Part shown: one piece after another, positions 18,614 to 21,957 of the stretch | How the letters are laid out: each line of letters opens with the position of its first letter | How positions within the stretch are numbered: the stretch's first letter is position 1 | Notes under the pieces: model-generated | Told to the model about the DNA's origin: nothing | What the model saw: only the letters and a program-made list of their open reading frames with translations | The model's database searches: none | Program-made: the position numbers and the translations under genes | Source of the DNA: Escherichia coli | GTDB taxonomy: Bacteria; Pseudomonadota; Gammaproteobacteria; Enterobacterales; Enterobacteriaceae | NCBI RefSeq assembly: GCF_050920415.1 | Contig: NZ_CP169310.1 | DNA: 64,000 nt | Strand: one strand, 5' to 3'

Positions 18614-18899
18614 TCATATAACATGTTTTGTACCCGGAAACGATAAACTGGAATTGATATTTTACTCACTGACGCAGATATGCGTCAGTGAGCGATCCTG
18701 GCGCACTATGCAGATGGTTCTTATTAAGGTTCGATAACCACTGTAGAGTGAGCAATGCTGTTCTTACATCTGCTTCTGGAATAAACACGATATTTTCCTT
18801 CATCATTGTCCACGAAGCTTTCTAGTATTTTATCTTCTGCGCTGGATGAGAGCACCGTTAGCACCAAAGCATTTTCACACCACAGAACATAGCATCCTG

Positions 18900-21536
18900 C
18901 ACCGTAACAGTATCTTGTTGCAGCCGTGAAGCTGCGGGCCCCTATGTAATACGCTGACTCGCGCCTTATTCTCCCAGCGAGCTTTAATCTCTAGAACAGA
19001 TTCAGGTTTAGCGAGTCCAGGTCTTACCTGTCGTTGTCATCACTACGGCTGCCCACGCAACCTTTCAGCATTCACCCTTTTGGAAAGAGTTTATGTTTAT
19101 CGGTATCAGCGATTAATAAGGCCTGATACTGACATGATTTTTGTCGTATTTACGTCCGTGAGCGGCTATTGCCCACACCGTTCGCGCCAGCTTGTTTGCC
19201 ATTGCGACGATTGCCACGCTGGCCGGACGACGTTTTTTCAGTTCGGTTATCCACGGCCCAGGTTCTTTGGTCAGTAATGCTGCCGCCCTTGCACCATGAA
19301 TAAACAGGGTTCGCAGATATTTATCACCACGTTTGCTTATTCCCAGCAGGCGGATTTTTCCTCCTGAGCCAGTCTGTCTGGGCACCAGACCAACATAAGC
19401 CGCGAACTCTCGCCCTGATTTAAACACAGATGCTTTCCCCATGATGGCCAACGCTGCCGTCGCAATAAGTGGTCCAACGCCAGGAATATCCAGCAACCGT
19501 CTACAGGTCTCATTCTGTCTCGCCACACTGGTAAGCTGTTTTTCGATATCATCTATCAGTGAGTCCAGCTCACTCAGTCTGTTGTACTGGTCTTCCAGCA
19601 CCATAATGAGATACGGTGGCAGTCTCTCTTTCATCCGCTCCAGTGCTTCAGGGAACTCCCGTTCCATCGCTGCCCGACCTTTGTGGATGGTTTCACCAAA
19701 CTCCAGTAATGAACCGCCCCGGGTTTCCTGGAGAGTGTTTTATCTGTGAACTCAGGCTGCCAGATCATTGTTTCCGATGGAAGCATAATAAGCTTTTTCT
19801 GCTTCTGCCGGAGGAGTATGGCCCAGCCTTCCCAGCAATCGTCGATTGTTATACCAGTCCACCCACGTGAGTGTGGCCAGTTCCACTTCTGCACGGTTTT
19901 TCCAGCTCTTACGGTGTATTACCTCCGCTTTGTAAAGACCATTGATGCTCTCAGCCATCGCGTTGTCATACGAGTCGCCTGTACTCCCTGTTGATGCCAG
20001 CAGTTTTGCTTCTTTTAGTCGCTCCGTATAGGCCAGTGACACATACTGAGAGCCTTTATCGCTGTGATGGATGGTGCCAGACGGACGACGGGCCCACAAC
20101 GCCTGCTCCAGCGCATCCAGCACGAATGTCGTTTCCATAGACGATGAGACCCGCCACCCCACGATGTATCCGGCAAACACATCAATGATGAACGCCACAT
20201 GGACGAAGCCCTGCCATGTGCTGACGTAAGTAAAATCAGCCACCCACAGCTGGTCAGGACGTTCTGCCACGAACTGACGGTTTACGCGGTCACCTGTGGC
20301 AACGGTTTTCCGGCTGACGGTAGTGCGGACCTTTTACCCCGGAGAACACCGGCAAGTCCCATAACCGCCATGAGGCGCACCACTGTACATCTGGCCACCC
20401 TGATTCCTTCCCGTAACAACTGACGCCAGACTTTACGCACACCGTACACCTGATGATTTTCATCGTATACGCGCTGTATCTCTCTTCAGCCAGTCATCGC
20501 GCTGCGCACGGGCACTGCGTTTATCAGGATGATGCCGCTGCTGCTGACAATGGTAATACGTTGACGGGGCAATATGCAGTTCACTGCATACCGGTCCGAC
20601 CCCGTACTGCTCACGCAGCTTATCCAGCAGTGGCATTATTTTTTCCAGAGGCGGTCGAACTCCGCCTTCGCAAAATAAGCGGAAGCCTGGCGAAGGATAT
20701 CGTTACTGCGGCGCAGTTCACAATTTTCACGTTCCAGCTCTTTCAGACGCTGACGTTCAGCGGTGGTGAGCCCACCATCACCGCCCCGGTATCCCTCTCA
20801 TGCTGGCGAACCCAGACACGCAGAGTCTCTGGCGTACAGCCAATCTTTGGAGCAATGGAACAAATTGCCGCACATTGTGAGTCATATTCGCCCTGACTTT
20901 CCAGAACCATACGAACTGCGCGTTGACGGACTTCGGGGGAAAAACGAGTATTTTTAGTCATCCTGTTTACCTCTTTCTCAGGAAGTTTAGTCTCCAGGAT
21001 TTCCGGGGCGGTTCAGTAACATCCCGTGCAGGGCATTAATTTGTGCGGTCCGGAACTTCACCAGTTGTCTGCGGGAACGGCGCAGAACCAGTATTGACTG
21101 TTGTTCTTCTGTTTTGACGGCGATTTCTTTGCCTGGCTGCTGTACCGCCATCCAGATAGCCCGTGCATCCATCACGTCATTCTTATTGCCCATGACGAAT
21201 GCTTTAACGAAGCGAGCCTGCAACAACCGGACTTTGTGTCCCTGCTTTGTTAATTCACGCGCCCAGTACTGGGGCCTCCACAGGCTTTCATGCCAATCAG
21301 GCAAGGTTCGCGGTTACTAAAGAACGTCAGAAAATCTCTGCTGCGTAGTTGCTTATCCACCACTTCCCCTGTGTGCTCATTGATGAAGTGAACCTGAATG
21401 ACATGTTTTGCGATATCAACGCCAACCGGTGTATATTTCATTTGTGGTGTCTCCAGTCTGAGGGAGCTTTATGCATCCCGTATTGGGCACTATGATGCCG
21501 GAAATCTGCGAGGCTCCACACTTTTCCTGCCAACCC
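18900..21536 (-). mobile_element. IS110-family element (copy A) carrying a nested IS629-like insertion
   Basis: transposase split into 20987-21441 (N-part, MKYTPVGVDIAKH...) and 19113-19667 (C-part); non-coding ends shared with copy B at 38610-39927. Confidence 0.6.
19711..20985 (-). mobile_element. IS629-like IS3-family element (orfA 20743-20961, orfB remnant 19752-20270), degenerate
   Basis: terminal TGAACCGCCCCGG repeats at both ends; Orf[30 protein letters not shown]...; orfB frameshifted. Confidence 0.6.
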
Positions 21537-21566
21537 CGGCTTCATACTCAAATAGTTGAGATGCGT

Positions 21567-21662
21567 TCATTACATTCTCCAATGACTAGTTTAAAAACTA
21601 GTATTAAGACTATCACTTAATTTAAGTGATAATGGTTGTCTGGATATTCAGGGGGCCAGTAT
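21567..21662 (-). repeat. solo IS2 left-end fragment (~95 bp) abutting IS110 copy A
   Basis: reverse complement reads ACTGGCCCCCTGAATATCCAGACAACCATTATCACTTAAATTAAGTGATAGTCTTAATACTAGTTTTTAAACTAGTCATTGGAGA, matching IS2 IR-L region as I recall it. Confidence 0.55.
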
Positions 21663-21957
21663 ATAAAATTTCTCACATACTCCATCACTTCCTTGAAGCT
21701 CAATGCCTAGTAAACACTAAAGCAGATAAATTGGCTTTATTGCGACGTCCCGTTAATAATCGGGCAATAGCTGTGAGATTACTTTCCTGCCCTTGTGTCT
21801 TCCACTTGAACAACAAACCGGATTGAATGCCATGCACAAAACACTATCATTCAAAGAATACAGTCTGTTGAATAATAGATGTTTTTTCTGATGTGTTTAC
21901 ATATAGGCAGCAGTTCCCTCTGATAAAAAACCTGTTCAAATCTAGTTATTGTATGTT

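Follow-up and report, generated by a model that had tools for sequence, protein, structure and literature searches.

The DNA analysed here, called the window, is a stretch of 64,000 nucleotides from Escherichia coli that corresponds to the first 64 kb of plasmid pOkiPb01715_1. Its minus strand carries a type VI secretion system (T6SS) cluster in which tssK and tssL are separated by a gap of approximately 3.3 kb, running from position 18590 or 18614, depending on the start codon of tssL, to 21957. It was found that this gap is likely a graveyard of four insertion sequence (IS) layers, all oriented like the T6SS operon, which has no function of its own and was formed in the order proposed below. 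In the direction of the T6SS, the gap consists of 294 bp adjoining tssK, an 88-bp left end of IS2, an IS1111-type element and 301 bp adjoining tssL. An earlier note, made from the letters alone, had described an IS2 end and an IS629-like element that interrupts an element of the IS110 family, and this nested anatomy was borne out by alignments and by excision of the IS629-like element in silico with one copy of its GTAA duplication. Judging from the reading frames and ends, every layer is dead, and nothing in the gap should be able to transpose by itself. As a nested-IS scar, the locus is ordinary; the ISs of the gap are already flagged as pseudogenes in the PGAP/RefSeq annotation.

The top layer is an IS629/IS1203-like element of the IS3 family, 1306 bp in length (19710-21015, minus strand). 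It was delimited by 28-nt imperfect terminal inverted repeats (TG...CA) whose arms are 86% complementary, and it is 96.0-96.7% identical over its full length to copies annotated as 'IS3-like element IS1203 family', above the 95% taken as the lower limit for membership in this isoform. The Rfam scan found the ALIL frameshift pseudoknot (RF01497) at 20565-20681 on the minus strand (120.9 bits, E 3.8e-32). The tetranucleotide GTAA stands on both sides of the element, at 19706-19709 and 21016-21019, and excision of the element with one GTAA gave a gapless join with 96.8% identity to an intact IS110-family copy (locus L012). Because excision restored a colinear alignment, it may be concluded that the IS110-family transposase gene was truly split, with a 4-bp duplication. 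Compared with an intact 1310-bp copy, three indels (20786, 20484 and 20336) break the frames of orfA and orfB. PGAP labels the element 'frameshifted', and as far as the frames tell, this copy is without a functional transposase. A likewise frameshifted IS629-like copy with 99.3% identity was observed on another plasmid of the same collection, pOkiPb01695_1 (locus L005, 1501-2808); this defective variant may therefore spread with transposase supplied in trans.

The element that was split is of the IS1111 type (IS110 family, ISEc66-like) and occupies two segments of the minus strand, a 5' segment at 21020-21578 and a 3' segment at 18915-19709. Its ends were set by comparison with five other copies, intact or nearly so, from unrelated loci (96.8% identity). 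With a length of approximately 1.43 kb, the intact element has 12-bp subterminal inverted repeats (ATGAACGCATCC / GGATGCGTTCAT), a 134-nt leader, a 339-aa transposase and a downstream non-coding region that, at 268 nt, is longer than the upstream one. This layout is as described for ISEc11 (PMC11187229). The transposase of an intact relative scored 333 bits on NF033542, 'IS110 family RNA-guided transposase' (cut-off 140), and the closest named relative of the element is ISEc66, with 88.6% identity to copies so named. In the window copy, the 5' segment contains the left end with the subterminal repeat ATGAACGCATCC (21561-21572), the leader and the N-terminal part of the transposase, which starts at 21441; the 3' segment contains the C-terminal part, which ends in the stop codon at 19113, followed by 198 nt of the downstream non-coding region. 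Homology to the intact copies ends at 18915, so the last ~72 bp of the element are gone, the second subterminal repeat included. The transposase gene also has a 1-nt deletion near 21274, seen as an alignment gap at element position 306 against the L012 copy. Elsewhere in the window, a second IS1111-type element (38545-39930), which is intact (WP_024166190.1) and approximately 90% identical to the gap copy, adjoins a RelE/Phd toxin-antitoxin pair. Its downstream non-coding region carries another guide-like segment, AAUAGGCCCAUGGACAUC, which implies a different target for this element.

The 88 bp next to the 5' segment (21576-21663, minus strand) correspond to positions 1-88 of IS2, with 94.4% identity over 89 bp (21575-21663; E 1e-34). 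The trinucleotide 21576-21578 (TCT on the plus strand) is common to the IS2 end and the element junction. No complete IS2 was present in the gap, and neither sequence past position 88 of this young copy nor a 5-bp duplication was found there. The same 88 bp of IS2 abut the transposase-upstream end of the element not only in the window but also at L012, L014 and L016, three of the five other loci; at a fourth, the element sits in similar sequence within tnpC of IS66. In a search for the junction only, the IS2 junction was detected in 42 of 5426 complete genomes, 18 times on the T6SS plasmid lineage and 24 times elsewhere. Since the same junction recurs at unrelated loci and in 42 genomes, the 'solo' IS2 end appears to be the habitual target of the IS1111-type element. 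The earlier note was thus right about the match to IS2, but the fragment measures 88 rather than 95 bp and is not an independent solo remnant. It was also considered whether the IS2 end belonged to the old relic described below. This was rejected: the fragment is 94% identical to IS2, whereas the relic can hardly be recognised, and the position of the fragment is downstream of the orfA of the relic.

The IS2 fragment is cut approximately 4 bp before the ATG of IS2 orfA, and the target site lies between the Shine-Dalgarno sequence of this gene and its ATG. Insertion is specific for sequence and orientation; the two junctions of the element share only AGA(A), with no target duplication of the conventional kind. 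Putative guide segments of a seekRNA were located in the downstream non-coding region, at 18986-19002 and 18969-18976. In this order they include AUCUG(U/C)UCU and UGGGAGAA, each of which matches one strand of the target TTGGAGA(A/G)CAGAT, and the U/C guide variants follow the junction base. The order of the matches, top strand and then bottom strand, is as reported for IS1111 seekRNAs (PMC11187229). These putative segments are consistent with RNA guidance of the IS1111-type element. Weighing against the seekRNA assignment is that it is based on matches of 8-9 nt, and in the Rfam scan only the ALIL pseudoknot was found, with no bridge-RNA or seekRNA family matched. Among the copies compared (the window, L012-L016 and L004), the guide-like segment corresponding to 18986-19002 occurs in three variants, AAUCUGCUCUGGAGAUU, AAUCUGUUCUAGAGAUU and AAUCUGUUCUGGAGAUU, in which two variable positions change as C..G, U..A and U..G. 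This pattern can be read as covariation in a hairpin or as retargeting.

It is tentatively proposed, with a probability judged to fall slightly short of even, that the IS1111-type element is an RNA-guided 'parasite of a parasite'. Its seekRNA would home to the left end of IS2. Each insertion would cut the IS2 transposase off from its promoter and its ribosome-binding site, and at the same time it would put the promoter-less transposase gene of the element behind the IS2 promoter; the U/C guide variants would shift the preference between IS2 and tnpC of IS66. If this is true, solo 88-bp IS2 ends beside this element are footprints of a targeting habit, not random debris. The locus illustrates clearly how an IS1111-type element can have a defined target in IS2, with natural guide variants as well, and it might be of use in work on seekRNAs and bridge RNAs.

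The flanks of the nest, approximately 290 and 300 bp long, had been taken for unique DNA. This was not confirmed: both proved to be decayed parts of an older IS2-family element, the 5' part at 21664-21957 and the 3' part, with the C-terminal relic of orfB and the right end, at 18624-18914, both on the minus strand. The 294 bp adjoining tssK showed no similarity to IS2 at the DNA level (z = 1.6) and were recognised at the protein level only. An OrfA relic at 21763-21894 was found by tblastn with residues 15-62 of IS2 InsC (42% identity over 50 residues, E 1.7e-7) and matched the NCBIfam model of IS2 TnpA with an E value of 0.014. Within the 301 bp adjoining tssL, positions 18669-18830 are colinear with IS2 positions 56-225 from the right end (score 35 against 11 +/- 1.2 for shuffled sequences, z = 19), and the tip of the relic, TGTTTTGTACCC (18624-18635), resembles the IS2 terminus, as judged by eye only. 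Blastn of the gap against IS2 returned the 88-bp end only; permissive Smith-Waterman alignment with shuffled controls was needed to detect the relic of orfB and the right end. Because both flanks are in the expected order and orientation, they would represent one old IS2-family element whose middle was lost.

The age of this relic was indicated by related plasmids. This T6SS, at 82-86% nucleotide identity and with an IS-free gap, was found on one Salmonella plasmid and on dozens of plasmids of E. coli. Their genes are nevertheless set apart by a non-coding spacer of 330-370 bp, which is homologous to the tssL-proximal relic and matches the C-terminus of IS2 OrfB (InsD) by tblastn with E values of 6e-5 to 8e-4. 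On plasmid pRHB38-C13_4, the tssK-tssL junction is a 700-bp version with a clearer IS3-family OrfB relic (NF033516, E 8e-14). The presence of the relic in these spacers suggests that the spacer goes back to an ancient IS insertion common to the whole clade. No homolog of the tssK-proximal 5' part was found in the gaps of the IS-free relatives. Among more distant relatives, tssK and tssL are 34 bp apart in an E. coli plasmid system with 42% TssL identity, and on a Rahnella plasmid with the same tssA-J-K-L-M order they overlap by 4 bp. Approximately 60 bp upstream of tssL (18592-18651), which take in the tssL-proximal tip of the relic (18624-18651), are conserved at 0.88-0.93, like coding DNA, against 0.65-0.77 for the rest of the relic. 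The earlier note had held that the same gap without ISs in relatives would contradict it; the relatives do have a gap, but a shorter one made of IS relic, which bears out the objection by half.

The following order of events is proposed. An IS2-family element would have landed between tssK and tssL in the ancestor of the E. coli/Salmonella plasmid T6SS clade and decayed to a spacer of 330-700 bp, of which the terminal ~60 bp by tssL stayed conserved, probably as the 5' leader of tssL including its ribosome-binding region. In the lineage of the window, a younger IS2 would then have inserted into the relic, and the RNA-guided IS1111-type element, related to ISEc66 and ISEc11, would have homed to its preferred site in the left end of this IS2. 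A deletion would have taken the last ~72 bp of the IS1111-type element with the rest of IS2, leaving the 88-bp end. The IS629/IS1203-like element would next have entered the IS1111-type transposase gene and produced the GTAA duplication, and frameshifts would have accumulated last.

The position of the IS629-like insertion in this order was supported by the distribution of the nest among plasmids. The 3.8 kb spanning the gap are 100% identical, at the same coordinates, to plasmid pOkiPb01715_1 (NZ_AP042696.1, 223.9 kb, from bovine faeces, Okinawa) and 99.8-100% identical to 12 further plasmids of approximately 200-240 kb. While these 13 plasmids carry the full nest, five others have the truncated IS1111 copy and the IS2 end without the IS629-like element; therefore, this insertion appears to be the most recent of the IS arrivals.

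The deletion is a step that we infer only; no IS2 target duplication is visible, and no microhomology is present at 18914/18915. The composite could instead have come by recombination between IS copies, as suggested by the chimeric flanks of locus L014 (NZ_CM143727.1, 2976799-2978956), where the same element stands between tnpC of IS66 and the 88-bp left end of IS2; exchange of flanks thus does occur. Under this alternative, the block of IS2 end and truncated IS1111-type element owes its arrival or its truncation to recombination between dispersed copies, either homologous or mediated by transposase and seekRNA, rather than to insertion and deletion in place. The missing target duplication fits such an event, as do the copy with 90% identity at ~38.5-39.9 kb of the same window and the identity of the IS1111 copies between carrier lineages, which at 92.7-97.5% is far below that of the flanking T6SS genes (>98%) and suggests gene conversion with other copies. 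However, the element does not naturally recombine at the truncation point, which lies 72 bp inside its end, and the two outer junctions are identical in all 18 carriers; a single ancestral illegitimate deletion would account for both observations just as well. Recombination of this kind is considered unlikely, and insertion followed by deletion in place is retained in the proposed order.

The consequences of the nest for the T6SS were considered. The genes tssL, tssM and tssH most likely still receive some transcription, by read-through or from IS-internal promoters of the same direction, and their expression is probably reduced rather than abolished. All IS layers have the same direction as the operon, and a terminator scan revealed no strong terminator on the minus strand and only one weak terminator-like site. 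In comparison with the IS-free relatives, tssL showed dN/dS values of 0.15-0.30 at dS 0.43-0.57, the same as tssK, and by this measure it stayed under purifying selection after the old insertion. The ORFs of the T6SS are all intact in the three sequenced carrier sublineages. In addition, the same spacer has received independent IS insertions on other plasmids. On pJKHS016_1 (NZ_CP147062.1, locus L003, 1837-5409), an IS629-like element, itself interrupted by a group II intron with intact ltrA, is inserted in the relic 121 bp upstream of tssL; on p48B2a, homology to the window stops at the tip of the relic, and other ISs lie upstream. The earlier note had pointed to the nest as separating tssL-tssM-clpV from the upstream operon. 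As an effect of the nest this was overstated, since all close relatives already have the non-coding spacer described above and tssL in them shows the low dN/dS just given.

Several results weigh against continued expression. Promoter scans gave matches at chance level and located no tssL promoter in the window or in the IS-free relatives. Since a search of the IS-free spacer for consensus promoters yielded none, tssL is probably dependent on read-through, perhaps wholly. Rho-dependent termination within 3.3 kb of IS RNA, most of which is not translated, could stop such read-through. The carriers differ by only ~0.3-2% at synonymous sites, and dN/dS among them is 0.4-0.9 in tssH, tssM and tssL. 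With carriers so similar and substitutions so few, the intact ORFs and the dN/dS values do not show continued selection after the nest was formed.

Polarity was the main reading of the earlier note, and these results would also fit a strongly polar nest, with tssL, tssM and tssH not expressed and the T6SS inactivated so recently that its ORFs have not yet decayed. The nest adds approximately 2.75 kb to give the gap of 3.3 kb, which would be transcribed mostly as untranslated RNA, the IS frames being frameshifted, and untranslated RNA favours Rho-dependent termination. The intact ORFs weigh little in a comparison of near-identical carriers (dS <= 0.02), and the probable need of tssL for read-through and the raised dN/dS of the three genes point the same way. 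However, the genes upstream of the gap are similarly inflated at low divergence: between the window and locus L018, 7 synonymous and 13 non-synonymous differences were counted upstream, against 17 and 30 downstream. Furthermore, the 6.5 kb of tssL-tssM-tssH contain no nonsense mutation or frameshift in 18 plasmids of three sublineages, whereas the adjoining 1-kb IS1111 transposase gene gained different lesions. The co-directional layers without a strong terminator, and the fact that the system had already survived an IS at the same position, also speak against strong polarity. Polarity that inactivates the system is judged somewhat less likely than not.

These large plasmids, which are bovine or associated with Shiga toxin-producing E. 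coli, have an AT-rich and divergent T6SS, apparently complete in other respects, whose membrane-complex and ATPase genes stand behind 3.3 kb of dead IS DNA. The activity of the T6SS should not be deduced here from the presence of its genes, and expression should be established first. Because ISs struck the spacer independently at least three times and the system outlived the first of these insertions, these plasmids form a natural series for the tolerance of an operon to interruption.

The old relic contains a palindrome upstream of tssL, which the earlier note had reported as a near-palindrome of 24 bp. It is real but larger, a perfect 12+4+12 palindrome at 18665-18692 with arms at 18665-18676 and 18681-18692 and a 4-nt spacer; the 24-mer of the note belongs at 18667-18690, its coordinates having been off by one. 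The palindrome is unique in the window, where none would be expected by chance. Its perfect form occurs in all IS1111-bearing plasmids, while the IS-free relatives and IS2 have an imperfect version at the same place. As RNA, it folds into a 13-bp hairpin with no U-tract after it. The possibility that it is an intrinsic terminator was rejected, as neither strand has a U-tract.

The simplest reading is that the quasi-palindrome was 'corrected' by template switching. Several simultaneous changes that perfect a quasi-palindrome are a known signature of template-switch mutation and require no selection. Being perfect, unique in the window and confined in this form to the carriers, the palindrome might alternatively be a functional site gained in the IS-bearing lineage to compensate for the insertion, for example an operator for a regulator that binds as a dimer, a component of a new tssL promoter, or an RNA element that acts as stabiliser or attenuator. 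The hairpin and the overlap with a promoter-like site on the T6SS strand (CTGACG-18-TAAAAT) agree with such a role. However, matches of this kind were at chance level (9 found against 8.8 expected), the -10 element of this site is not conserved in the L002 and L018 carriers, and the hairpin lacks a U-tract. Moreover, with an imperfect version already present in the relatives and in IS2 itself, perfection is explicable by template switching without selection. A gained function is accordingly regarded as very unlikely.

The T6SS genes are arranged on the minus strand in the order tssB, tssC, a 166-aa ORF in the position of hcp, a gene with a weak TssE match, tssF, tssG, vgrG, a DUF6931 gene, a PAAR gene, tssA, tssJ, tssK, the gap, tssL, tssM and tssH. 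The baseplate gene tssK (21958-23310), the last one before the gap, was identified by TIGR03353 (247 bits), and the DotU-family gene tssL (17999-18589), the first one after it, by TIGR03349 (92 bits) and by reading of the sequence; TssH/ClpV scored 938 bits. PGAP annotation of the identical record NZ_AP042696.1 agrees with the calls of the flanking genes. The GTG start of tssL at 18589 is preceded by GGAGG, and an alternative ATG is present at 18613. When the 13 core genes were checked, intact reading frames were found for TssA, B, C, F, G, H, I, J, K, L and M. TssM (14588-17992) matched its model over only ~170 N-terminal residues, at 51.5 bits against a cut-off of 388, the TssE match was weak (23 bits), and the 166-aa ORF in the usual hcp position (30898-31398) had no match in Pfam or NCBIfam. 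By these profile matches, the T6SS cluster is divergent. It is AT-rich (30-40% GC), and the middle of the gap has 50-54% GC.

The C-terminal tail of TssK past LLVELVL was observed to vary by lineage, reading LQK*, SQEKNMQ* or SQEKICSKLFSG* (window 21958-21990 and the tssK 3' ends of loci L006-L009), as if an ancient IS insertion had swapped the last tssK codons. Beyond tssH, an AvrPphF/EspJ-like type III effector gene (6834-7430) and a T6SS gene with an ImpA-N domain (7741-8826) were noted; they are separated from tssH by an intact IS630-family element and several IS and Mu transposase pseudogenes (9206-11797).

The layers of the gap were compared with known elements. The IS629/IS1203 elements are like the top layer in length (~1310 bp), imperfect TG...CA repeats, orfA and orfB with ALIL -1 frameshifting and a target duplication of 3-4 bp; the window copy differs in being 1306 bp long and having three frameshifting indels. 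IS2 is represented by an 88-bp fragment 94.4% identical to its left end and by older flanks that encode OrfA-like and OrfB-like relics colinear with it. Unlike a complete IS2, the young copy has positions 1-88 only, and the old copy becomes visible only in protein comparison, for orfA, or in sensitive DNA alignment, for orfB and the right end.

With ISEc11 and ISEc66, the IS1111-type element has in common the length of ~1.43 kb, the 339-aa transposase, the 12-bp subterminal repeats and the longer non-coding stretch downstream of the transposase gene. Site- and orientation-specific insertion with only 3-4 shared bases and two guide-like segments matching the top strand and then the bottom strand are further common features (PMC11187229). 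The window copy, in contrast, appears dead, being split, frameshifted and short of one end. ISEc11, which was compared by description only, has the target GTGAAAATACTG, whereas the element described here targets the left end of IS2 (TTGGAGA/ACAGATGA) and a comparable site in tnpC of IS66.

No report of an IS1111-type element targeting IS2 was found in the searchable literature, nor was anything specific on ISEc66 or on a plasmid-borne E. coli T6SS. IS4321/IS5075 target the terminal repeats of the Tn21 family. ISEc21 targets the DDE codons of IS3-family elements (PMC11187229). The element described here is similar to ISEc21 and IS4321/IS5075 as an IS110/IS1111-type element with a preferred target inside another mobile element, but it differs in inserting into the untranslated left end of IS2, between the ribosome-binding site of orfA and its start codon. 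The targeting of IS2 would go beyond the routine, yet it fits the known behaviour of the family, as exemplified by ISEc21 in IS3-family genes.

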